The notes below the pieces were generated by a model that worked only from the letters and a program-made list of their open reading frames with translations, was not told the DNA's origin and did not search any database. A stretch of 64,000 nt of DNA from Lachnospiraceae bacterium (GTDB taxonomy: Bacteria; Bacillota; Clostridia; Lachnospirales; Lachnospiraceae): the NCBI GenBank assembly GCA_011959105.1, contig BLLU01000197.1, positions 6,350 to 70,349 of the forward strand, read 5' to 3'. Positions 1,349 through 46,970 of this stretch are shown here, piece after piece (within the stretch, counting starts at the first letter, position 1; every line of letters begins with the position of its first letter). The translations under genes and the position numbers were made by a program.

Positions 1349-3286
1349 TTATCTCACCAGTATCTTGAAAAATCTGTTCTTTCCCATTTTCAGTGTATGT
1401 TCCGTCCCGACTGGAAGTGCCAGCGCCTTTACGTCCGTCACCTTCTCTCCGTCCACCTGCGCGCCTCCCTGCTGAAAGATCCGCCGGGCTTCACTCTTGG
1501 TCTTGTAGAAGCCCCCGCCGGCCAGAAGATTGAGAATCTGCTCCCCCTGGACAGGATCGGAACCTCCGTCAATCTCCAGGGACGGCACATCTTCCGGCAT
1601 CTGGTTTTTCTGATATACCATTCTAAAGTGCTCCTGCGCCTGAACCGCCGCCTCTTTTCCGGCGTAGAGCCCGGTGATTTCCAGGGCCAGCATCATCTTC
1701 ACATCTCTCGGATTCACCCCGTCCTCCAACATTTTCTGCAGCTTCGCCACTTCGTCCGGGTGCACATCCGTGCAGAGATTATAGTACTTGAGAATCAGGG
1801 AATCCGGAATCTTCATGATCTTTTCATAGATCACCGCGGCGGGCTCACTGATCCCCACATAATTTCCCAGACTCTTACTCATCTTTTCCACGCCGTCGAT
1901 TCCTTCCAGAAGGGGCATAAAAAGCGTCAACTGGGGCGTCTGTCCATAATCCCTCTGAATATTTCTGCCCATCAGGATATTAAAAGTCTGATCGGTCCCG
2001 CCCAGTTCGATGTCCGCCTCAATGGCCACGGAATCATAGGCCTGCATCAGCGGATAGAAAAATTCGTGCACCGACAGGGGCAGATGATTGGTGTAGCGTT
2101 TGTTAAAATCATCTCTCTCCAGCATTCGGGCCACGGTGCATTTCGCGGCCAGTTCAATCACATCCCCAAAGTTCATTTTGCTCAGCCATTCGCTGTTGAA
2201 ATGCACTTCCGTGCGGTCACGGTCAATAATTTTGAAAATCTGTTCCATATAGGTTTCGGCGTTGCGCTCCACATCTTCCCGGGACAGTTGTTTCCGGGTC
2301 TTGGATTTGCCGGTGGGATCACCGATCATCCCCGTGTAATCCCCGATGATGATCACCGCCTTATGGCCCAGATCCTGCAGCTGACGGATCTTACGCAGCA
2401 CCACGGAATGGCCGATATGGATATCCGGCGCGGAGGGATCCAGCCCCAGCTTAACCCGGAGCGGCCGCCCCTCTCTCCCGGCCTCCGCCAGCTTCCGGCG
2501 GATCTCCGGCGTGGCCGTGCTCTGAGCCACGCCTTTTAGCATAATCGCAATCTGGTTCTCTATCTCCTTTTCCTCTTCCGTCATAAAGCCGAAGCGTATT
2601 TCATCGTTCTCCCGGTTGATAACGCCAAATTCCGCCTCCACAGAAAAGAATTCCCGAATTCGGGATACCAGTTCGGCACAGGCCGCTTCCACCTGTTCCC
2701 TGTTGTCATAAAATCCGTCTATGGGGAAAAGGAAATTTTTCGCGGTTTCCGCAACCCGGCCTGCCGGCATTTGCCGCCAGATCCAGCGCCTGGTTCTCAC
2801 AAGATGGCCGGAGACATACACCGGTTCCCCGGGCTTCAGTTCATCCCCCTGCAGATGGTTCTCCTCCATGCCGCAGTCCTCCTCCCCGGCAAGGCGAATC
2901 CACAGATCCTCCTGCAGAGTATCCAGATCGTGTACTCCCACGGGAAGTCTGTACTTTATGGAAATATAATTGCCAAGATCCACCACCGGACTTACCGCCG
3001 GGAATTCCCCCTTCTTGGAAATCCTGGTGAGGATGGCTTCAATGGAACAGGGGTATTTGGAAGGATTGACGCCGAGTTCCTTCATCGCGCAGCGATACAA
3101 CTGCAGATCTTCGTCCTCTTTCAGGTTTTTTCCGCTTAACGCCCCGGCAGCCGCTTCCACCTCCCCTCGAAGCAGCTGCCCGATTTTCTCATTGGGGGAT
3201 TGATTGTCCAGCCCCATGGCCGTAACCACTCCGATGTAAATCCCGCTCCTTAATTCCAGAATTTTCTTTTCAACTCTTAAAAACAT
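1349..3286 (-). CDS. tyrS: Tyrosine--tRNA ligase with an N-terminal B3/4 (COG3382, PheRS-beta-like) domain, 645 aa
   Basis: The C-terminal 411 aa carry class I signatures HIGH (DIHIGHSVVL) and KMSKS plus an S4-like tail (KSEARRIFQQGGAQVDGEKV). The N-terminal 234 aa match the B3/4 pattern (YRCAMKELGVNPSKYPCSIEAILTRISKKGEFPAVSPVVDLGNYISIKYRLPVGVHDLD...PGEPVYVSG..VRTRRWIWRQ). I place the start at ATG 3286, which has SD GGAGG 9 nt upstream. Track codons 3287-3352 overlap the T-box terminator. Confidence 0.85.
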   Translation of the reverse strand: MFLRVEKKILELRSGIYIGVVTAMGLDNQSPNEKIGQLLRGEVEAAAGALSGKNLKEDEDLQLYRCAMKELGVNPSKYPCSIEAILTRISKKGEFPAVSPVVDLGNYISIKYRLPVGVHDLDTLQEDLWIRLAGEEDCGMEENHLQGDELKPGEPVYVSGHLVRTRRWIWRQMPAGRVAETAKNFLFPIDGFYDNREQVEAACAELVSRIREFFSVEAEFGVINRENDEIRFGFMTEEEKEIENQIAIMLKGVAQSTATPEIRRKLAEAGREGRPLRVKLGLDPSAPDIHIGHSVVLRKIRQLQDLGHKAVIIIGDYTGMIGDPTGKSKTRKQLSREDVERNAETYMEQIFKIIDRDRTEVHFNSEWLSKMNFGDVIELAAKCTVARMLERDDFNKRYTNHLPLSVHEFFYPLMQAYDSVAIEADIELGGTDQTFNILMGRNIQRDYGQTPQLTLFMPLLEGIDGVEKMSKSLGNYVGISEPAAVIYEKIMKIPDSLILKYYNLCTDVHPDEVAKLQKMLEDGVNPRDVKMMLALEITGLYAGKEAAVQAQEHFRMVYQKNQMPEDVPSLEIDGGSDPVQGEQILNLLAGGGFYKTKSEARRIFQQGGAQVDGEKVTDVKALALPVGTEHTLKMGKNRFFKILVR

Positions 3287-3328
3287 TTTTCGGCCCTCCT
3301 GTTTTGGTTCCCCATACGCAAAAAAAGC

Positions 3329-3632
3329 AAAATAAAAACCCGCCCTGTTCAAAAGGGCGAGTTTGTTCGCGTTACCACCTAATGTTTACGGACACCTCAC
3401 GGTGTTCGTCTCATGCAGTATCCCATGCAAAGTGTAAAATACATGGCAAATACCTGGGCATATAACGGTGCCTCCCGGCATATCCTACTGTGATTTCAGT
3501 ATGCGACTCCAAGATGTATTCGCAGTGCTGTTCTTCCGCGCCTCTCATCAACCGGCTGCTTTCTGTGGAGCATTCACACTGTTACTGATTCTTTTCCCTG
3601 TCTTTGTATATGCAGTTTTTGTGAATTCACTT
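3329..3632 (-). promoter_or_regulatory. T-box leader with tyrosine specifier (UAC) and intrinsic terminator, upstream of tyrS
   Basis: The minus strand reads ...GAUGAGAGGCGCGGAAGAACAGCACUGCGAAUACAUCUUGGAG... with GAA-UAC-A at plus 3516-3518. The conserved T-box sequence AAACAUUAGGUGGUAACGCG lies at plus 3361-3387. It is followed by terminator CGCCCUUUUGAACAGGGCGGGUUUUUAUUUU (plus 3329-3361). Confidence 0.8.
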
Positions 3633-3668: not shown

Positions 3669-3825
3669 CTTTTTTCGGAAAATTTCCTCTGCTGTATGAG
3701 CCATCCATGATCAAACACGGCGATAGAGTCACAGAACCGGCAGCTTGACAGCCTGTGACTGATAAACACCACGGTTTTATTCTCCACCAGCGTGTTGAAA
3801 TTCTCATAGACTTCCCTAATCGAAC
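3665..3825 (-). pseudogene. C-terminal fragment of an ABC-transporter ATPase (gene remnant)
   Basis: Only the last ~50 codons of ORF 3665..3937 look like protein: REVYENFNTLVENKTVVFISHRLSSCRFCDSIAVFDHGWLIQQ, which is the H-loop/C-terminal region of ABC ATPases. No Walker A, signature or Walker B lies upstream; that space is occupied by the 3' end of the PepSY gene. Confidence 0.45.
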
Positions 3826-4877
3826 TCCTTCTCAAAACCGAGCACTTCGCCTGTAACCGCGTCCACATCGCAGGCGTATTCTGTCCGTCCCACATGCCAC
3901 TCGATCTCAAACTCGGCGCGCCCGTCGTCATAATCATAAGAGACTTCCAGGAACTGCGCTTCCTCTTCGGCTACACCTGCATATTCCAGGGCGATTTCCT
4001 TCGCCTTGTCCCCGGTGATTTGTCCATCCCCCGTCGGGCTGTCACCGCCGGTTCCCTGGGGATAATACTCCGCATCATGATCGAAGGAGAGGATCTTCCC
4101 GGTGAGCGCGTCAATGTCGTAGTCATACTCCGTCCGGGTGCTGTCCTGATAAAATTCCACATCGTATTGCCAGATTCCATCCTCCAGTTCCAGTTTCGTA
4201 TGAGCAAAGCCCACCTCTTCTTCTTTCAGACCGGCATGTTCCAGGGCCACACGCTTTGCCGCTTCCAGACCGATATACTGCCCTTCCCGGACATCAGACT
4301 GAGCGGTTCCGGGCCCTGATTGGATGGCTCCAGGCTCCGGCTGAGTGGCTCCAGGTTCTGACTGGGCGGCTCCGGGCTCCGGTTGAGTGGCCACGGCCTG
4401 AAGCGTTCCCTGGGGCACGCTCTCGAGATCATAATCACCGATCTCGCAGTTCATGGAAAGAATCTCCCCCGTAGCCGCGTTCACCCTGTAGTCATATGCC
4501 GCATCTGCACTGATAAATTCCAGATCATATGTGGAAGAACCGCTCTCTGAATCCAGATGAACCCGAACAAACCGCACCTCCTCCTCCGAAAGCCCCGCAT
4601 TGCCCAGGGCAGCAGCCTTCGCCTCCGCCATCGTGATAGTGTCGGCAATCTGGCCCTCCTCATTTTCCCGACCGCCCTCGGCCTCCGACTGCCCCGGCAA
4701 GTTCTGCCCGCCGGATTGTCCCGGCATATCTGCCTGACCTGCCGCTCCCGTCGGCTCCGATGAATTCTGCTGTTCCTGCTCCCCGGATATTGACCCGGGC
4801 GTCTTTCCACTGCATCCCGCAAACAGAATCAGGCCGCAAACCAAAAGGATACTTTTGAAAATCATATGTTTTACCAT
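3816..4877 (-). CDS. Secreted lipoprotein with three PepSY domains
   Basis: Lipobox LFAGCSG follows a signal peptide. There are three PepSY-like repeats (ITMAEAKAAALGNAGLSEEEV..., IGLEAAKRVALEHAGLKEEEV..., ITGDKAKEIALEYAGVAEEEA...). The start is taken at ATG 4877, which has an upstream GGGAGGAG. Confidence 0.8.
   Translation of the reverse strand: MVKHMIFKSILLVCGLILFAGCSGKTPGSISGEQEQQNSSEPTGAAGQADMPGQSGGQNLPGQSEAEGGRENEEGQIADTITMAEAKAAALGNAGLSEEEVRFVRVHLDSESGSSTYDLEFISADAAYDYRVNAATGEILSMNCEIGDYDLESVPQGTLQAVATQPEPGAAQSEPGATQPEPGAIQSGPGTAQSDVREGQYIGLEAAKRVALEHAGLKEEEVGFAHTKLELEDGIWQYDVEFYQDSTRTEYDYDIDALTGKILSFDHDAEYYPQGTGGDSPTGDGQITGDKAKEIALEYAGVAEEEAQFLEVSYDYDDGRAEFEIEWHVGRTEYACDVDAVTGEVLGFEKEFD
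4305..4391. repeat. 21-bp tandem repeat (about 4 units) encoding the (A/T)Q(P/S)EPGA linker of the PepSY protein
   Basis: Consecutive units ggctccaggctccggctgagt / ggctccaggttctgactgggc / ggctccgggctccggttgagt, plus one degenerate unit upstream. Confidence 0.7.
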
Positions 4878-5118
4878 CGTAGTTTTTCTCCTCCCATTCG
4901 TTTTCTTCCAATGCAATGTATTGCTGGTCTTATAGATTTTAGCACAAACCCATTTGCATTTCTACTGGAAGTTTTTTTGTGGGGAAACTGCTATGATGCG
5001 GGTTCCCGACGTGAGATATTTCGGATTATGGGTAAATCAATAATGACCGGCTTTGCGTCTTATGATTGTCACATCAAAAGCGCTTGTCCTCCTTTTTCAA
5101 TCGACTATTCTGGCTTGA

Positions 5119-5164
5119 AACAAAACAAGCTGCAGATCTCGGATCATTTCAGCATCTGCAGCTT
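5119..5164 (-). terminator. Rho-independent terminator at the distal border of the rlmD islet
   Basis: Perfect 11-bp stem AAGCTGCAGAT/ATCTGCAGCTT (5127-5137 and 5154-5164), followed on the minus strand by UUGUUUUGUUU. Confidence 0.55.
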
Positions 5165-5466
5165 ATCTATTCAAATTCCTATTCGATTATGAGGCTTACT
5201 TATCAGTGTTAGAACGCTTCCCTTCGTTATTGATGCGGCAGTAATCAGCCCTCTCTACATCCAGAGTTATACAGGATTCCTTCTTCTTTTTGGATATTGC
5301 TCAATAGGCATACCGTCTCCACATGTTCATCATTGTCCAAACCTATACTTAAATCATTTTCAATAATCGGTAGCTTAAACCGAATTGATTTAAGCCACTG
5401 ACCACCCCTCATGGCTGTTATCCCATTTGTGCAACGGTCGCTGCACTTTTGCTGTTAATTTTGTTA

Positions 5467-6543
5467 TTATTCTAATTCTTTTTCTATTTCTTCAATAGAA
5501 GGCAAACTGCTCTGGAACTCCTCTGGCAAAGACTGTGTGAGTTGATTCTGCCAATCTGCAACACCAATCGGGTTCTGATAACCAGATAAAGAATATTCCA
5601 CTACAGTTTTATTCTTACCCTTAACCAATAAAAGTCCGATTGTAGGTTTATCATCAGGATGGCACAAAATATCATTTACTATATTCTGATACATATTTAA
5701 CTGACTGATAAATCCCGGCTCAAAATCACAGGCTTTTAATTCTATCACGACATAGCAACGTAATTTCAAGTGATAAAACAAAAGATCTAAATAAAAATCC
5801 TGCCCTCCAACCTCTAAATGAACCTGCCGCCCAACAAATGCAAATCCCTGTCCTAATTCTAATAGAAAACTTTGAATATGTTCTGTTAGTTTCTGTTCTA
5901 TTTCCACCTCACGTCTTGGCATATCGGTTCCCAAAAAGTCAAACAAATAAGGATCTTTAAATATCTGATTCGCCATATCAGAATCAAGCGATGGCAATGC
6001 CACAGGGAAATTGTTGACTGTTTTTCCAGTACGTTCCATTAATTTACTTTGTATCTGTAACTCAAGTATCGTTTTACTCCAACCATTTTCTATTGTTTTA
6101 CCAGAATACCATATGCGTTCTTCCTGTGTTTTTAATTTATCCATCAAAGTAATATTTGTCCGCCATGGTATTTGTGCAACGACCCGTTGCACAATTTCAT
6201 AATCCCCCCAACACTGGGCAAATTTTCGCATATACTTAATATTACGTGGAGAAAAGCCGGACATTTCTGGAAAAGCAATTTTCAGATCCTTTGACATACG
6301 GTCAATAACCTTTGCACCCCATCCCTCTTCCTCTTGTTTTTTCAAAATAGCCCTGCCAATATTCCAGTAAAGGCAAATCATGCTTATATTGGCGTTCATT
6401 ACAACGGAAACTCTCTGCTTTTGAATCTCTTTCTTGATTTCTTCTATAAATTGCAAATAACTATCACTCATTTCAAAAAGATTTGGAGCAACAGGAAAAA
6501 TCACTCCCTCTTTATCTTTTCCCATGTGCTTTCGTTTATCCAT
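5467..6543 (-). CDS. DUF1016 / YhcG-family PDDEXK nuclease
   Basis: The N-terminal region is typical of DUF1016 (ICLYWNIGRAILKKQEEEGWGAKVIDRMSKDLKIAFPEMSGFSPRNIKYMRKFAQCW). The C-terminal restriction-endonuclease-like core reads DLLFYHLKLRCYVVIELK. SD AAAGGAGAG lies upstream. Confidence 0.85.
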   Translation of the reverse strand: MDKRKHMGKDKEGVIFPVAPNLFEMSDSYLQFIEEIKKEIQKQRVSVVMNANISMICLYWNIGRAILKKQEEEGWGAKVIDRMSKDLKIAFPEMSGFSPRNIKYMRKFAQCWGDYEIVQRVVAQIPWRTNITLMDKLKTQEERIWYSGKTIENGWSKTILELQIQSKLMERTGKTVNNFPVALPSLDSDMANQIFKDPYLFDFLGTDMPRREVEIEQKLTEHIQSFLLELGQGFAFVGRQVHLEVGGQDFYLDLLFYHLKLRCYVVIELKACDFEPGFISQLNMYQNIVNDILCHPDDKPTIGLLLVKGKNKTVVEYSLSGYQNPIGVADWQNQLTQSLPEEFQSSLPSIEEIEKELE

Positions 6544-6566
6544 AAGCGCTCTCCTTTATCTATTCC

Positions 6567-8255
6567 TTAATCATGGATGACAGTATTAAGTTTCTCTTCA
6601 AGTTGCTTACACTTTGTTGAATTTTTAAAAATATTGGCAGGATAAGACTCTGGAAAAAGTTCATCCATAAATTGTGTTGTTTGATCTACAAGTACATCAA
6701 CCAAAGAGATTACACTATTTCGGATACTATCTTTATCTATAACACACATGTTAAAATTCTCATCTTGTCCTTTATCCCTCAAAATAAAATGTAAAATAAA
6801 CCTATTAGCATGAATGCAGACCAGACGTTCCCTATTGTTATTTACATGCTCTTTCTTATCTTGCAAACATTGCTCAGCTTCTCTCATATATAAAACAGAA
6901 TTTAAAAGTGCATATGAATTTGTCGATCGATTCATTAATGCCTTATATGGTGTTTTAGTAATGTCCTCAGATAACGCCCCAATATTGCCTTTAGCAATTA
7001 CAGTATACGATATATCTGCATGTAAGCATGCTAACGCCACAATTGCTTCATCAAAAGAAATTTGCTTCTCTAAATTTGTAATTTTATCACCACTCTTATA
7101 GAGATACGAGTAATGAGCAAACGTCAACTCTGTCCGTAATCTATCCTGTTCAGGATCAAGCGCTGCAAAATCTTTATTCTCGATTCTATTTTGTGTATTA
7201 GATAATCTTGTAATTTGTGTAGTTGTTTCTGTGTCAACACTACTCAGATCAATTATTTGAATCATGACTATCGCTTTTGAAACTTGTTCTGGATTATCTA
7301 AAAACAAGGAGCCTATCGTACCTGTTGTCTGCGCTCCATTAACAAGAGAAACGCCCTCCAAAGCAAATAATCCTGTTGCATTAGTTGTACTATCCTTTGC
7401 TTTTCGCTTAATAGATTTACATAACAATTTAATCCCGTTATTGTAATAGTAAAACTTTTCTGGTTCTTGTAAAAGGACTTTTTTCATACCTTCATTTACA
7501 TCTGTATTTCCCTTATAAAATCGAATGTTTTTTGCGAACAAAGCATTTCCATAATTTTTATACCATTCACCTACTGTTGCTGCTGAAATAGTTCCGTAAT
7601 AAGAAACAAAAGGAACATCCACTTTTCCCCAATTGGATAAAATAACATCATCAATATTAATTCCCAGCTGCTCTTGCCCATTCGCCAAAAAAGTATATAT
7701 ATCCTTAAAATTAAGCTCGTCAAACAATAAAATCGTACTTATCTCATCATTTGTTTTTCCCATCAGCTGCAAAATTGGGCGCAATATATAATCATTTGCA
7801 TTTTGATTTCCTGTATGTATAAATATGGCATGTATTTGATACCCCATTTGCGTTAAGGCCACATCTATATCAATACTCTTTGCCATTATTTTAGCATTTG
7901 AACCTGCCAAATCCTCTTCCAATACTCTCTGAACTCCTTGAACAAAATTAGACATTTCGTCTTGAGTAATGGAACCGCCTCCGTCTGATCGCCATTTACT
8001 TTGAACAATAAATAATTTTTTCTGAGTTTCATCCAAATATATCGCATCAATTCCCATATCATGGTAACCATCTGTAACATGAACACTCGCCTGCGACACT
8101 TCAAGGCCAGATGTCATAATTAATGCAAATGCCGCTAAGGCTCTCGTTTCAAAATGTCCATTTGTATCATTAGGAATATCTGCCATGTCGATTTTACCTT
8201 GAAACATTTCCTGAATCCGTACCTGCACTCGACGCATATTAATATTATTTGCCAT
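6567..8255 (-). CDS. AIPR-family (abortive infection phage resistance) protein
   Basis: The N-terminal part reads HVTDGYHDMGIDAIYLDETQKKLFIVQSKWRSDGGG, and the central motif is LVNGAQTTGTIG; both are characteristic of AIPR (PF10592-like). This was recognised by eye, not searched. Confidence 0.75.
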   Translation of the reverse strand: MANNINMRRVQVRIQEMFQGKIDMADIPNDTNGHFETRALAAFALIMTSGLEVSQASVHVTDGYHDMGIDAIYLDETQKKLFIVQSKWRSDGGGSITQDEMSNFVQGVQRVLEEDLAGSNAKIMAKSIDIDVALTQMGYQIHAIFIHTGNQNANDYILRPILQLMGKTNDEISTILLFDELNFKDIYTFLANGQEQLGINIDDVILSNWGKVDVPFVSYYGTISAATVGEWYKNYGNALFAKNIRFYKGNTDVNEGMKKVLLQEPEKFYYYNNGIKLLCKSIKRKAKDSTTNATGLFALEGVSLVNGAQTTGTIGSLFLDNPEQVSKAIVMIQIIDLSSVDTETTTQITRLSNTQNRIENKDFAALDPEQDRLRTELTFAHYSYLYKSGDKITNLEKQISFDEAIVALACLHADISYTVIAKGNIGALSEDITKTPYKALMNRSTNSYALLNSVLYMREAEQCLQDKKEHVNNNRERLVCIHANRFILHFILRDKGQDENFNMCVIDKDSIRNSVISLVDVLVDQTTQFMDELFPESYPANIFKNSTKCKQLEEKLNTVIHD

Positions 8256-8273
8256 CTTTCGTTTACACCTTCC

Positions 8274-8474
8274 TTACTGTATCATCTTAAAATGTTCCAA
8301 CGCTTCCCTTATAGCAGCTTCTTTCTCTGGTGGGCATTTCGGTTGTCTGGAATTTTCCGATTTTGGCAGATTATAATTTGCCCTCTCAATAATCCCACAT
8401 TTCTGTTTTACCTGTGCAATATACAAGTTGCTGACTTTCAATCCGCTTTTCTTCAGAACATAATCCTTGATTTC
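8274..8474 (-). other. 66-codon in-frame continuation of rlmD beyond a TAG stop (C-terminal tail module)
   Basis: The same frame as rlmD reads ...TAAENKAIY-TAG-EIKDYVLKKSGLKVSNLYIAQVKQKCGIIERANYNLPKSENSRQPKCPPEKEAAIREALEHFKMIQ-TAA. TAG is at 8475-8477 and TAA at 8274-8276. Confidence 0.6.
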
Positions 8475-9983
8475 CTAATAAATTGCTTTGTTCTCCGCCG
8501 CCGTCAAATCAAGTTCATCCATCTCTAATTCCACATTAATATGCTTAAACTTATTTGATTTAAGTTTTGAAAGCAACACGATACTTTCCACATTCGCCGT
8601 CCAGGGAAACTGATCCACCGCCACAGCCCTCTCCACATGATATCCGCCCTCCAGAAACGCTTCCAGGTCTCGGGCCAGGCTGGTGGGCTTGCAGGAGATA
8701 TAGACAATCCGCTCCACACCATAGCCGATGATCTTAGGCAGTGCCTTGGGATGGATGCCGTCCCGGGGCGGGTCCAGGATGATCATATCCGGCTTCTCCG
8801 TCAGACCGTCCAGCACCTTCAGCACATCCCCGGCAATAAACGCGCAGTTCCCCAGGCCGTTCAGCGACGCGTTTTCCCTGGCAGCCTCTACAGCCTCCTC
8901 CACAATCTCCACGCCGATTACCCGGTCTGCTGCCGCCGCCATCAGTTGGGCAATGGTGCCGGTACCGCTGTACAGATCATAAAGCAGCTTTCCGCCCTCC
9001 AGTTCCCCCACATATTCCCTGGCCGTCTCATACAGCACTTCCGCGCTGTAGGTATTGGTCTGGAAAAAGGAAAAAGTCGAGATCCTGAAACGCAGTCCCA
9101 GCAGTTCCTCATAGATGTAGTCACGCCCATAGAGAATCTCGGTGTGATCGCTCTGTACCACATCCGCCAAAGAGTCATTGGTAATATGTAAAATACCTGT
9201 CAATGTCCCTTTCAGCTCTCCCCGCTCCTGCATTTGAAGCAGGCATTCCCGATAACCTGCCGCCAGCTTCCGAATCTCTTCCGAATCTCCCGGCTGCCCA
9301 TAGACACCGTCCACAGGAGCCTGGGAAGAAGTCACCAATGCCACCAGAATCTCCCCCGTCCTGGCAGCTTTTCTCACCAGCAGATGCCGCAGAAATCCCT
9401 GATGCCGCATCTTGTGGTGGAAGCTGGTGCCCTGCTCCCGAAAATAGGCCAATGTGCCGCACAAAATCCTTCGGTAATCCTCATCCACAATTTTGCAGTC
9501 TTTCACATGCACCACATCATACATGCTGCCCCGTTTATGCATGCCCAGGGACAGGGGACCATCCTTTACTTCGTCCCCGAAGGAAAATTCCATCTTGTTG
9601 CGGTAGGCATAAGGCCGGGGGCTTCCCTTGATGCCCTCCCACCGCCAGGGTTCCTGCTGCCCCTCCAGTGCCCGGTCCAACATCTCCTTCACCTGCCGCT
9701 CCTTGATCTGCAGCTGCTCCTCATAGGGCAGGGACAGATACGTACAGCCTCCGCACAAGCCAAAATGGGAACACGGTTCTCCGGTTTCCAGAGAGGATGT
9801 TTCCAACACCTCCAGAAGCCGGGCTTCCGCCTTCCCATGTCGCACTTTGTTTACAAGAAAAGAAATCTTTTGTCCGGGCAGGCTGTTCTTCACCACGCAG
9901 GTCTCCTCCCCGGCCCTTACTATGCCTTTGTTCGGAAACTCCACACGTTCCACAATTCCGATATACACCTGTCCTTTTTTCAT
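8475..9983 (-). CDS. rlmD: 23S rRNA (uracil-C5)-methyltransferase RlmD/RumA (TRAM + Fe-S Cys cluster + SAM MTase)
   Basis: TRAM-like N-terminus (VYIGIVERVEFPNKGIVRAGE), a Cys cluster (CSHFGLCGGCTY), SAM motifs (LYDLYSGTGTIAQ, DPPRDG) and catalytic YISCKP. The start is placed at ATG 9983. Confidence 0.85.
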   Translation of the reverse strand: MKKGQVYIGIVERVEFPNKGIVRAGEETCVVKNSLPGQKISFLVNKVRHGKAEARLLEVLETSSLETGEPCSHFGLCGGCTYLSLPYEEQLQIKERQVKEMLDRALEGQQEPWRWEGIKGSPRPYAYRNKMEFSFGDEVKDGPLSLGMHKRGSMYDVVHVKDCKIVDEDYRRILCGTLAYFREQGTSFHHKMRHQGFLRHLLVRKAARTGEILVALVTSSQAPVDGVYGQPGDSEEIRKLAAGYRECLLQMQERGELKGTLTGILHITNDSLADVVQSDHTEILYGRDYIYEELLGLRFRISTFSFFQTNTYSAEVLYETAREYVGELEGGKLLYDLYSGTGTIAQLMAAAADRVIGVEIVEEAVEAARENASLNGLGNCAFIAGDVLKVLDGLTEKPDMIILDPPRDGIHPKALPKIIGYGVERIVYISCKPTSLARDLEAFLEGGYHVERAVAVDQFPWTANVESIVLLSKLKSNKFKHINVELEMDELDLTAAENKAIY

Positions 9984-10036
9984 GATTACCCCTACCCGCA
10001 TACCGCAGTCTGTCTGCGGCATCGCGTCACTCCGTA

Positions 10037-10285
10037 TTAGTTCTCTCCTTCATCTTCGAAGATGTCTTCCTCGTCGTCCTCATCCTCAAACTCGTCCTCG
10101 AACTCATCTTCAAAGTCCTCCAGATAAGTGGGGGTAAAGTAGCGGTACACCGCATAAGCGATAGCGGCCACAGCAGCCACCGCGCCGATGATGGCCAGGA
10201 CCCACACCAGTGTATTGCCCTTCTTGTCTTCTTCCTTCTTGCTGCCCAGCAGTTCGCCCAATTTCTTTAATTCTGTCATATTCAT
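10037..10285 (-). CDS. Small single-pass membrane protein with a poly-acidic C-terminal tail
   Basis: One TM helix (LVWVLAIIGAVAAVAAIAYAVY) is followed by EDFEDEFEDEFEDEDDEEDIFEDEGEN. No family recognised. Confidence 0.55.
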   Translation of the reverse strand: MNMTELKKLGELLGSKKEEDKKGNTLVWVLAIIGAVAAVAAIAYAVYRYFTPTYLEDFEDEFEDEFEDEDDEEDIFEDEGEN

Positions 10286-10414: not shown

Positions 10415-12667
10415 CTACACTTTTTTTAGTTTTGCAAAAGAAGCGTACATGATTTTCTGCCCGGCCTTTTCAAAGGTCACCGTGACCTTGTAATCCCTGG
10501 GCTCCTTGGCAATCTGCAGCACCGTACCCTCTCCGTATTTCAGGTGGCGGACCCTGTCTCCTTCCCGGTACTCCAGTTCTCCCAGAGTCTCCATGCTGTC
10601 CCCTTTGGTGATTCCGGCAATCTTGTTCAGGCCGCCGATGCCCTGGGCAATATAGGGCTTGTTCTCCTTGGGTGTCACCCTGGGCCGCAGGATGGCTTTG
10701 GGGCGGAAATCCCCCGGCTCCATGGCCCTGGTTTGGGGCGGCGTATTGTCCATCAGTTCCCCGGGGATCTCCTGTACAAACCGACTCACGGGATTGTACT
10801 GGTTTTCCCCCCGGATCATACGGCTGCGGGCACAGGTCAGAGTCAATTCCTCCCGGGCCCTGGTGATGCCCACATAGGCCAGCCTGCGCTCCTCCTCCAG
10901 ATCCCCGGGATCGTCTGAACTGATGCACATATAGCTGGGAAACAGTCCGTCCTCCATGCCTGCCAGATACACACAGGGGAATTCCAGTCCTTTGGCACTG
11001 TGCAGCGTCATCAGCACGATGCGGTCCGCACCATTCTCCAGGCTGTCGATATCGGCCACCAGCGCAATCTCTTCCAAAAACTCGCTCAGGGAAATCTCGT
11101 CATGGGTCTGTTCGTAGAACACGGCCCTGTTCAGAAATTCCTCCACATTCTCCATTCGGTCATTGGCGTCCTCATCGTCCAGGTCCTGCAAATATGCCCC
11201 ATAGTCTATGGTGTCCATGATCTCATGAATCATATCCACGATGCCATAATATTTCGCCTTGGCCTTGAACACCTGGATCATCTTCACAAATGGTTCCAGC
11301 TTGGCCGCCGCCCTGCCCAGGCTGGTGATCTGGTCCATTTGCTCCAGCGCCTGGTAAAACGTGATACCCCGCATATCCGCATAACTCTGTACCTTGTCCA
11401 GTGTGGCATTGCCTATGCCCCGTTTGGGCACATTGATAATCCGCTTCACGGCCAGGTCATCCCTGCCGTTGTCGATGGTCTTCAGGTAGGCCAGAATATC
11501 CTTGATCTCCCGGCGCGCGTAGAAATTGATGCCGCCCACCACCTTGTAGGGCATACCGTCCACCACCAGACGTTCCTCCAGCGCCCGGGACTGGGCGTTG
11601 GTGCGATAAAGAATGGCACAGTCACCATAGTGCGCCTGGCCCTTCCGCACCCGGGCAGCGATATCGTCGGAAATATATTCTGCCTCTTCATAGCCGTTGT
11701 CAAACTGCCGGAAATGGATTCTGCTTCCCTGCTCTTTCGCCGTCCAAAGCGTTTTTTCCTTGCGCCCTCGATTGTTGCGGATTACTGCATTGGCCACATC
11801 CAGTATATTGCCGGTGGATCGGTAATTCTGCTCCAGCTTGATAACTTTTGCCTCCGGGTACACTTTCTCATAATCCAGAATATTACGGATATTCGCCCCC
11901 CGGAACTTGTAGATGGACTGGTCGTCGTCGCCCACCACGCAGAGATTGCGGTACTTGTCCGCCAACAGCCTTATCAGTTCAAACTGCGCCGTGTTGGTGT
12001 CCTGATACTCGTCCACCATGATATAGCGAAATCTCTCCTGATACTGGTTCAGCACCTCCGGACAGCTTTTCAGCAGTTCCACCGTCATAACCAGCAGATC
12101 GTCAAAATCCAGCGCATTGCTCTTTTTCAGTTCCCGCTGATACTCCTTATAGCATGCTGCTATCTTTTTTTTCTGAAAATCTCCCATGGCCTGCAGTTCA
12201 TATTCCGTGGGGGAGAGCAGTTCATTTTTGGCGGAGGAGATGGCGGACAGCACCGACCGCTCCTTCAAAGTCTTGGTGTCGATCATCTGCCTCTTGCACA
12301 CGTCTTTGATGATGGATTTCTGATCGTCCGTGTCATAGATGGTAAAGTGGTTGTCATACCCCAGCTTATCTATATATCTGCGCAGAATACGCACACAGGT
12401 GGAATGGAAAGTGGACACCCACACCTGGTCCGCGCCGAAGCCCACGATCTGGTCTACCCTCTCCCGCATCTCTCCCGCCGCCTTGTTGGTGAAGGTGATG
12501 GCCAGGATATTCCAGGGATTCACCCCCATCTGGTCAATCAGGTACGCGATCCGATGGGTCAGCACCCTGGTCTTGCCGGAGCCAGCTCCTGCCAGCAGCA
12601 ACAGCGGCCCCTCGGTGGTCAGTACCGCCTCTTTCTGTTCCTTATTTAATGTATCGTATATACTCAT
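10415..12667 (-). CDS. pcrA: ATP-dependent DNA helicase PcrA (UvrD family)
   Basis: Walker A AGAGSGKT, motif DEYQDT, and VGDDDQSIYKFRGA, in a 750-aa protein. Confidence 0.9.
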   Translation of the reverse strand: MSIYDTLNKEQKEAVLTTEGPLLLLAGAGSGKTRVLTHRIAYLIDQMGVNPWNILAITFTNKAAGEMRERVDQIVGFGADQVWVSTFHSTCVRILRRYIDKLGYDNHFTIYDTDDQKSIIKDVCKRQMIDTKTLKERSVLSAISSAKNELLSPTEYELQAMGDFQKKKIAACYKEYQRELKKSNALDFDDLLVMTVELLKSCPEVLNQYQERFRYIMVDEYQDTNTAQFELIRLLADKYRNLCVVGDDDQSIYKFRGANIRNILDYEKVYPEAKVIKLEQNYRSTGNILDVANAVIRNNRGRKEKTLWTAKEQGSRIHFRQFDNGYEEAEYISDDIAARVRKGQAHYGDCAILYRTNAQSRALEERLVVDGMPYKVVGGINFYARREIKDILAYLKTIDNGRDDLAVKRIINVPKRGIGNATLDKVQSYADMRGITFYQALEQMDQITSLGRAAAKLEPFVKMIQVFKAKAKYYGIVDMIHEIMDTIDYGAYLQDLDDEDANDRMENVEEFLNRAVFYEQTHDEISLSEFLEEIALVADIDSLENGADRIVLMTLHSAKGLEFPCVYLAGMEDGLFPSYMCISSDDPGDLEEERRLAYVGITRAREELTLTCARSRMIRGENQYNPVSRFVQEIPGELMDNTPPQTRAMEPGDFRPKAILRPRVTPKENKPYIAQGIGGLNKIAGITKGDSMETLGELEYREGDRVRHLKYGEGTVLQIAKEPRDYKVTVTFEKAGQKIMYASFAKLKKV

Positions 12668-37455: not shown

Positions 37456-37685
37456 AAAAAAAAGCCGACACCCATGCGCCGACGAACCATATCACGAAAT
37501 GCTTCCTGATATTATACGATAGCGCCCCATCCAGATACTCAGATGACAGTCATGCAGTTATTCACTGCACACCCAAGGCTCCAGCCCGCAGCAGGCCGGT
37601 CCTTTCGGCGTATGTCCCTTTCCTTCCCCTTCCCCTGTGCCTGCCACATCCGGGGGAGTACTCTTAAAATACGCAACCTCTATCT
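37456..37685 (-). promoter_or_regulatory. Lysine riboswitch (L-box) with terminator, upstream of dapA-dapB
   Basis: Minus strand: AGAGGUUGCG...AGUACUCCCCC...GCCGAAAGG...GCUGGAGCC..GGGU...ACUGUCAUCUGAG...GGAUGGGGCGCUAUC. It ends in hairpin GUCGGCGC-AUGG-GUGUCGGC followed by U8 (plus 37456-37483). Confidence 0.75.
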
Positions 37686-37695
37686 TATTTTCAAT

Positions 37696-46896: not shown

Positions 46897-46970
46897 CGTG
46901 CGTTAGAGGATTCGAACCCCCGACCTTTTGGTCCGTAGCCAAACGCTCTATCCAGCTGAGCTAAACGCAC
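46897..46970 (-). tRNA. tRNA-Arg (anticodon ACG)
   Basis: Minus strand GTGCGTTTAGCTCAGCTGGATAGAGCGTTTGGCTACGGACCAAAAGGTCGGGGGTTCGAATCCTCTAACGCACG. The acceptor stem is GTGCGTT/AACGCAC, the anticodon loop is CUACGGA, and the T-loop is GGTTCGAATCC. CCA is not encoded. Confidence 0.9.

Follow-up and report, generated by a model that had tools for sequence, protein, structure and literature searches.

We describe a 3.27-kb islet that interrupts the 3′ end of rlmD, the gene for the 23S rRNA U1939 methyltransferase, at positions 5318-8588 of a 64,000-nt stretch of Lachnospiraceae DNA from contig BLLU01000197.1 (the window, in whose positions coordinates are given unless a comparison locus is named). 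The islet is probably a non-autonomous integrative cassette of the rlmD-targeting serine-recombinase family, and its cargo, an AIPR-family gene and a DUF1016/YhcG nuclease gene, probably constitutes two independent single-gene defence or defence-accessory modules. Judged from its sequence, it is a deletion derivative of the large-serine-recombinase elements that target rumA/rlmD rather than an autonomous member of that group. This type of element has been known since 2014, AIPR/AbiU and DUF1016/PDC-S02 proteins are both catalogued, and the two genes do not form a conserved system. Less to be expected is that recombinase-less cassettes with base-precise borders are swapped within a species, stacked and found across genera, for which we found no description at rlmD in the literature searched. 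Comparison loci are given as L-numbers, and all features of the islet and its flanking genes lie on the minus strand of the window.

The borders of the islet can be placed to the base. The host part of rlmD (8589-10022; NCBIfam TIGR00479 rumA, 6e-84, and Pfam tRNA_U5-meth_tr) is 98% identical between strains up to the crossover, and pairwise BLAST within the species shows homology being lost at ~8586-8593 and regained at ~5312-5325. The GC content falls from ~0.56 in rlmD to 0.37-0.39 from ~8590 to ~5100, with 0.37 in the tail described below and 0.35 in the cargo. An earlier reading of this DNA, made from the letters alone (the original prediction), had noticed an abrupt switch from GC-rich to AT-rich sequence at the NVESIVLLS codons of rlmD; the switch is real and its crossover falls at 8587/8588, where GC content changes from ~0.56 to ~0.37. 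The insertion lies near the 3′ end of rlmD, at the GA of a conserved Glu codon in a ..VE(T/C)V.LL.. motif. GTGGA is directly repeated at the two junctions (8591-8587 and 5322-5318), with GA cores at 8588/8587 and 5319/5318. The left GA (8587-8588), located by the break in homology with other cassettes and strains, belongs to the Glu codon of ..NVE/SIVLLS and would be the core of attL, the left attachment site. The right GA (5318-5319), directly past which the flanks of six cassette copies diverge, would be the core of attR.

From the left crossover an element-encoded tail of ~104 codons (8274-8586) continues in frame with rlmD as far as a natural TAA stop at 8274-8276. That rlmD acquires an AT-rich tail ending at this stop had been proposed before and is upheld; that the frame is open throughout is not, as the window carries an in-frame TAG at 8475-8477 (GAG to TAG), reading AIY-stop-EIKDYV where related copies read ATYEEIKDYV. 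The annotated RlmD of this strain (8475-10022) therefore has 515 residues. Strains without the TAG mutation (L003/L015) encode a read-through RlmD of 582 residues. Among the contexts listed with the cassette, the 582-residue allele occurs on one contig only (ERZ808046; L003/L015/L023) and the others have the 515-residue form; the tail seems dispensable for the host. At the far end of the islet, a 55-residue chimeric open reading frame (ORF; 5245-5412) had been regarded as the displaced C-terminus of rlmD. This is correct for 5245-5319, the native rlmD 3′ end itself (5245-5317, encoding ..(E)TVCLLSNIQKEEGILYNSGCREG and a stop) being a right border conserved in all four alternative cassettes of the species, whereas 5320-5404 is a remnant of a large serine recombinase. 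The strong terminator foreseen beyond the displaced end was also found. It is a hairpin with a U-run at 5118-5162 (-25.1 kcal/mol, z = -4.5), the intrinsic terminator at which the rlmD transcription unit originally ended.

This architecture corresponds to that described by Srinivasan et al. (2014; PMC4120198), in which vanG and ICE-r elements insert at a GA dinucleotide, in the rumA codon that is 11th from the end, join 101-115 element codons to rumA, and carry across their right end a serine recombinase gene of 547-549 codons that has no stop of its own and runs into the 3′ codons of rumA. Those authors gave the significance as unknown. The agreement bears out the earlier statement that the rumA/rlmD 3′ end is an integration hot spot for serine recombinases. 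[quoted passage not shown] It also shares the in-frame fusion to rlmD, of ~104 codons (TAG-interrupted in this strain) as against 101-115, and the transfer of the last native rlmD codons to the right end, where they are joined to the recombinase frame. However, the islet is only 3.27 kb long, has no conjugation or phage genes, bears defence-type cargo rather than resistance genes, and has itself spread between genera in recombinase-less form. Where such elements have a serine recombinase of ~550-660 codons across the right end, joined to the last rlmD codons, the recombinase body is here deleted and the last ~28 codons (5320-5404) are left, as the putative attP-derived arm of attR. The 55-residue ORF starts GQWLKSIRFKLPIIENDLSIGLDNDEHVE, a stretch that shows 86% identity to the L096 recombinase over its residues 522-557 (tblastn, E 2e-14), and the remnant has 94% nucleotide identity to L096 7316-7402. 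The same type of 3′ end is found in integrase genes of Streptococcus Javan prophages, fused there to the host rumA end. No recombinase gene was found elsewhere within the 64-kb window.

Intact relatives of the lost recombinase indicate how the fusions may come about. L096 (5754-7745) encodes an intact 663-residue recombinase with the tail, followed by the same KilA-N cargo as an alternative insert of the species studied here (L010, below), whilst L102 (6356-10309) encodes two tandem recombinases, both tailed, of which the first is without the VET motif. In both loci rlmD-like VE(S/T)(I/V)VLLS codons stand directly ahead of the recombinase tail, and attP is therefore placed inside the recombinase ORF. 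The attP core would then lie between the recombinase body and its C-terminal tail of ~100 residues, and integration into the conserved Glu codon at its GA would pass the tail to RlmD and the last codons of RlmD to the recombinase. The cassette in the window may have been captured at rlmD by an L096-type recombinase, the body of which was subsequently lost.

The tail is widespread. Each insert variant of the species has its own AT-rich tail of ~100 residues, joined to RlmD past ..ANVE, and the tail of the AIPR-type variant is 40% identical to those of the others. Scanning with a tail alignment against one genome per species returned at least 494 confirmed loci, found in Lachnospiraceae, Oscillospiraceae, Faecalibacterium, Streptococcus and Peptoniphilus. 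The tail is mostly fused to rlmD; in several loci (L096, L102) an intact large serine recombinase ends in it, and stand-alone ORFs of 76-116 residues that join a recombinase remnant to a tail make up the best 120 matches of the tail protein search. It is constrained (ratio of nonsynonymous to synonymous substitution rates, dN/dS, 0.09-0.18) and matches no Pfam family. AlphaFold2 gave three short helices with a predicted local distance difference test score (pLDDT) of 51, a model too poor for structure search. We rejected the idea that rlmD possessed the AT-rich tail ancestrally, because alternative tails and cassettes exist within the species and the same tail is carried by recombinases. A small hidden Markov model (HMM) of the recombinase 3′ end, tried for the right ends of 80 tail loci, was too narrow, and most elements either exceeded 10 kb or met the contig end first.

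Within the species the site is occupied differently from strain to strain. Alternative inserts were found through contigs encoding an identical 82-residue neighbour protein (24 contigs, ten distinct contexts), and four different inserts, AIPR and DUF1016 among them, occupy a single slot between rlmD and a PepSY gene. One of the alternatives carries DarT and DarG (L013, 10058-11717; PADLOC 2e-38 and 3e-90). Another carries a 98-residue protein, KilA-N (PDC-S22, 5e-132) and a 265-residue protein (L010, 10042-12066), and a third an AAA_28 ATPase (199 residues), a Metallophos protein (569 residues) and a 44-residue remnant of DUF1016 (L011/L016, 10052-12377), the AAA_28 and Metallophos proteins being without a PADLOC match. 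Pairwise BLAST confines the variable segment to ~5325-8586, and the right-hand sequence encoding HVETVCLLSNIQKEEGILYNSGCREG and its stop, with the terminator, is common to all variants. The comparison of related strains that had been suggested for this locus thus defined the junctions; the empty rlmD site it had envisaged was absent from the ten contexts on 24 contigs, the slot being filled by alternative cassettes instead. Since other strains have DarTG, KilA-N or AAA_28 with Metallophos in this slot, the site is a strain-variable defence hot spot. The cargo past tails in the wider collection is diverse; what can be recognised of it belongs mostly to defence (GajA, GmrSD, type I restriction-modification, OLD/TOPRIM, ABC-3C, RhuM, PDC-S02 and AIPR), with ParA/ParB genes of larger elements also found downstream of tails. 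Separately, in L132/L133 (3215-6698) and L130 an AIPR homologue with 54% identity is found directly 3′ of a tail-less rlmD and is followed by three large genes; it may represent an independent capture at the same gene end.

Moreover, the recombinase-less form appears to have moved as a unit. From 8593 to 5312-5318 the window aligns at 89.5-92% identity with six other loci, namely L059 (Dorea sp. 5-2), L027 (Lachnospiraceae 45-P1) and the metagenome contigs L106, L107, L108 and L116; the adjoining rlmD of these cassette-bearing relatives is unalignable or 66-73% identical. In a right-end alignment the point at which the DUF1016 3′ flank meets the recombinase remnant is identical in 6/6 copies compared, and the right flanks of six copies diverge directly past the GA into four continuations, three of them native rlmD ends and the fourth the tail of a further cassette (L059). 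A shared deletion end-point with divergent flanks past the GA shows that the unit spread as a non-autonomous cassette after the recombinase had been lost. The islet had been predicted to be a decayed, integrase-less element. Integrase-less it is, but "decayed" needs qualifying, as six copies with the same end-point in at least four flanking contexts mean that it moved after losing its recombinase. These alignments are read most simply as one deletion and several later site-specific moves, which implies mobilisation by a recombinase supplied in trans. The cassette would be movable only with a related recombinase provided by sibling elements, and its excision is predicted to yield the circle junction 5404..5320-GA-8586.. 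and a repaired rlmD, ..AATGTGGAGACGGTATGCC...

Cassettes at this site are also commonly found in tandem. In L059 the AIPR and DUF1016 genes are followed by a second tail cassette, in L107 and L116 a recombinase with its tail precedes them, and in L188 the order is rlmD with its tail, GmrSD, RhuM, a remnant with a tail and then AIPR. RhuM cassettes form arrays in L190-193, and L096 is likewise among the loci with tandem cassette arrays. L107, a 5,219-bp contig with the recombinase and its tail, AIPR and DUF1016, was considered as a circular free form and rejected as such; it is a tandem array, because its two ends share no overlap and the host gene found in L106 recurs as its last ORF. These features recall the cis-mobilizable elements (CIMEs), att-flanked derivatives of integrative elements that have no recombination or transfer genes of their own. 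The islet resembles CIMEs in its attL-like and attR-like flanks, in having neither recombinase nor transfer genes, and in lying in tandem with other elements accreted at one site (L059, L107, L188). CIMEs have been described from tyrosine-recombinase ICEs, whereas the sites of the islet belong to a serine recombinase and one of its arms is a retained piece of the recombinase ORF.

The first cargo gene (6567-8255) encodes an AIPR-family, AbiU-like protein of 562 residues. As the original prediction proposed, family searches identify both cargo proteins, and a PADLOC run places both among catalogued defence or defence-candidate genes. The first matches Pfam AIPR (1.5e-34; 120.5 bits against a cutoff of 25), PADLOC AbiU over residues 78-557, which is near full length (2e-25), and PHROG 1841 "Abi alpha-like" over its full length (3.5e-86). 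Its likeness to AbiU (AbiU1) resides in these three matches. The relation is nevertheless distant (88 bits to the AbiU model), and the restriction-modification neighbourhood with which AbiU1/AIPR has long been associated (PMC3506569) is absent at the islet. The motif D70...Q85-x-K87 is invariant. The N-domain alone gave Mrr_cat_2 below threshold in hmmscan (E 0.069). An AlphaFold2 model from a 14-sequence alignment had a mean pLDDT of 59.7, moderate confidence being confined to ~190 residues at the N-terminus and ~110 at the C-terminus. Foldseek of this low-confidence model against the PDB returned no match with E <0.06, the weak top matches including PD-(D/E)xK nucleases (arenavirus L endonuclease, FokI), and a PDB sequence search with both cargo proteins found no relatives. 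The protein may therefore be described, with due reserve, as a putative AbiU-like abortive-infection protein with a C-terminal AIPR domain and possibly a Mrr-like nuclease N-domain. The AIPR domain is shared with MzaE, the AIPR protein of the MZA system (MzaABCDE), and the Z1 helicase family occurs with AIPR in MZA-type systems. Membership in MZA is ruled out, since the MzaE match is low (PADLOC 3e-13; NCBIfam 57 bits against a cutoff of 1050) and the islet has only two genes, with no MutL/MORC, Z1 or other Mza genes.

The second gene (5467-6543) encodes a DUF1016/YhcG PD-(D/E)xK nuclease of 358 residues, with matches to Pfam YhcG_C (8.5e-61) and DUF1016_N (2.3e-41) and, over its full length, to PADLOC PDC-S02 (1e-144). 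Its PD-(D/E)xK motif, D...ELK, is intact (..FYLDLLFY..VVIELK..), and D253 and K270 are invariant in alignment A7. The full-length match, both Pfam domains and the intact motif thus make up its likeness to PDC-S02. Where PDC-S02 is a DUF1016 gene of defence loci, the gene here sits on a serine-recombinase cassette and not in a restriction-modification operon; the family has the status of a candidate only. We regard the protein as a predicted nuclease of a sort found time and again within other defence loci (PMC9881135), probably with an accessory or second-line role.

The two genes had been put forward as a candidate two-gene defence module, and this was not supported by comparison with more distant homologues. 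A metagenome scan with an AIPR alignment gave 80 loci, and DUF1016 was adjacent only in 6, all of them copies of the same cassette with an AIPR identity of 87% or more. At the loci with AIPR of 44-73% identity, DUF1016 was found within 5 kb in 0/74 (phmmer and a four-sequence DUF1016 HMM). Among 91 immediate neighbours of those AIPRs the commonest Pfam families were AlwI-type endonucleases (15), MT-A70 (8), N6_N4 methylases (6) and HsdS (6), and YhcG_C was absent (0/91). Conversely, none of the 11 DUF1016 loci from IMG/VR has AIPR beside the DUF1016 gene. DUF1016 has other, mutually unrelated partners, standing behind a Z1/ResIII helicase in L028, where it is 96.7% identical, and behind a HerA-type set in L069. 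In L109 an intact 562-residue AIPR (dN/dS 0.11 against the window) is found next to a DUF1016 reduced to 127 residues. The 90% clusters of the two proteins also differ in size, with 1323 members for DUF1016 and 212 for AIPR. Adjacency of the two families across divergent homologues, as a two-gene system should show, was not found. Taken together, the distant AIPR loci without DUF1016, the restriction-modification neighbours, the alternative partners of DUF1016, L109 and the cluster sizes lead us to treat AIPR and DUF1016 as independent and not as an obligate pair.

Several observations nevertheless weigh against reading the islet as a mobile cassette with two independent defence genes, and some of them favour a true two-gene system, for instance one in which AIPR senses or regulates and DUF1016 is the nuclease effector, or a DUF1016 effector shared among various partners. 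The AIPR and DUF1016 genes are co-oriented, only 23 nt apart and always together in the cassette lineage, across at least four genomic backgrounds. In L028 homology is lost precisely where DUF1016 begins, and the nuclease behind the Z1 helicase could be such a shared effector. In E. coli, one PDC-S02 representative tested by itself failed to protect against T4, T5 or T7 (bioRxiv 10.1101/2024.09.26.614923), a result that is compatible with a partner requirement. Moreover, the PDC candidates of PADLOC are defined by recurrent embedding within known defence loci (cold-seep preprint). Given the absence of DUF1016 from the divergent AIPR loci and of AIPR from the viral-contig DUF1016 loci, together with the intact and constrained AIPR of L109, we consider a two-gene system or shared effector unlikely. 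The remaining points concern the firmness of the independent-module reading itself. Phage defence by AIPR or DUF1016 in this lineage is a prediction from sequence, and the Mrr-like character of the AIPR N-domain is a weak assignment, hinted at by a subthreshold match and a low-confidence model. Mobilisation in trans, deduced from comparative data, and read-through transcription of the cargo are inferred and not observed, and the promoter scan bearing on the latter (below) has little power.

A less probable explanation, which we rate as distinctly unlikely, is that DUF1016 belongs to the element backbone with the serine recombinase, as an accessory or directionality factor or in maintenance, and that AIPR is the sole defence cargo. 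DUF1016 is indeed repeatedly the last gene ahead of a recombinase or its remnant (the window, L059, L027, L028, L103 and, as a remnant, L011), and its closest homologues on viral contigs (IMG/VR L194, 3995-7072, and L195, 3-5077; 81-83% identity) adjoin serine recombinase genes. However, DUF1016 genes are widespread in type I and type II restriction-modification loci without a serine recombinase (PMC9881135). Many tail-bearing elements have no DUF1016, YhcG_C being found in 3/122 proteins sampled just past tails, and recombinase-less cassettes keep the gene under purifying selection. Finally, that the islet is an inert relic, its cargo now functionless or only an addiction (toxin-like) module stabilising it, is very improbable: the recombinase is deleted, the tail has a nonsense mutation in the window strain and AIPR and/or DUF1016 are disrupted in L106, L108, L116, L170 and L188 (several of them low-coverage assemblies), yet both ORFs are intact in the window, exactly identical proteins recur in 63 (AIPR) and 102 (DUF1016) blocks of the assembly collection, dN/dS against other-genus copies at dS 0.2-0.5 is 0.09-0.11 for AIPR and 0.05-0.12 for DUF1016, indicating purifying selection, and no antitoxin-like partner is evident. 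As an observation on a single strain of the same species, L170 (5001-7005) has an internally deleted AIPR (267- and 122-residue pieces) and a truncated DUF1016 followed by unrelated genes, and the cassette is therefore subject to strain-level decay.

On the reading of the islet as a non-autonomous cassette, its cargo would depend on the host gene for expression. Both Shine-Dalgarno-bearing spacers of the original prediction are present as described, with 18 nt containing GGAAGG between the tail stop and the AIPR ATG at 8255, and 23 nt containing AAAGGAG before the DUF1016 ATG at 6543. The claim that neither promoter nor terminator separates rlmD from the pair agrees with a consensus scan of low power, in which promoter-like matches were at chance level (14 against 13.4 expected). 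On the coding strand the same scan gave one weak terminator-like match between rlmD and the end of DUF1016, at 6507-6485 within the DUF1016 ORF, and no convincing terminator separating rlmD from the two genes. The hairpin at 5118-5162 was missed by the scan because its loop is long. Across the tail loci, ORFs past tails are mostly co-oriented with rlmD (174/204, or 85%, within 3.5 kb, and 61/69 of the first ORFs). We suggest that AIPR and DUF1016 are probably transcribed by read-through from the rlmD promoter, with transcription ending at the old rlmD terminator.

A broader proposition, which we advance only tentatively and with the balance somewhat against it, is that the rlmD 3′ end in gut Clostridia is an integron-like platform for capture and expression, at which two-arm cassettes are shuffled in trans, stacked and expressed by read-through, with swapping of defence genes at the strain level. 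The arms would be the tail start and the last ~28 recombinase codons, and the cargo swapped between them would comprise AIPR with DUF1016, DarTG, KilA-N, GmrSD with RhuM and others. By way of analogy only, the islet resembles integron gene cassettes in being a short, promoterless-looking unit co-oriented with the upstream gene and without a recombinase of its own, in array stacking, and in site-specific insertion beside an upstream gene that bears the promoter. It is not an integron, however, as recombinase genes, IntI included, are absent from it and its sites are GA-core serine-recombinase sites and not attC/attI; the recombinase would presumably come from sibling elements and not from a fixed platform gene.

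Upstream of rlmD lie the gene for the 82-residue protein (10037-10285) and that for PcrA (10415-12667; GFH96173). Downstream of the islet are the PepSY protein gene (3816-4916), which encodes 350-378 residues depending on the strain and has internal ~40-nt repeats by BLAST, and the gene for a tyrosyl-tRNA synthetase (1349-3352). The synthetase (1349-3607 region) has 645-667 residues; precomputed Pfam annotation places a B3_4 domain at its N-terminus, joined to the class-I synthetase core, and its gene has a T-box leader ahead of it (3350-3607; 97.7 bits). A lysine riboswitch (37512-37690; 115 bits) and a tRNA gene (46897-46970) were also seen, both on the minus strand. The cargo proteins are deposited under consecutive accessions from IMSAGC_003 / Acetatifactor sp., GFH96169 as "putative nuclease YhcG" and GFH96170, the product of the AIPR gene, as a hypothetical protein that is named "AIPR family protein" in the Acetatifactor record.

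In summary, little changes for the AIPR and DUF1016 pair itself, and what we describe is a modestly interesting mobile platform with ordinary defence cargo. The rlmD end in gut Lachnospiraceae is a convenient natural system in which to follow defence-gene exchange between strains and genera, and the cassettes could be used to ask whether minimal att-flanked cargo can be mobilised in trans by large serine recombinases. Moreover, the variants with AIPR and DUF1016, with a Z1 helicase and DUF1016, and with AIPR only (L109) form a natural series on which to weigh an accessory role of the DUF1016 nuclease against action on its own. Should the platform proposition be true, the splitting of the recombinase gene at attP would provide a built-in means of switching between a free-state and an integrated-state form of the recombinase.

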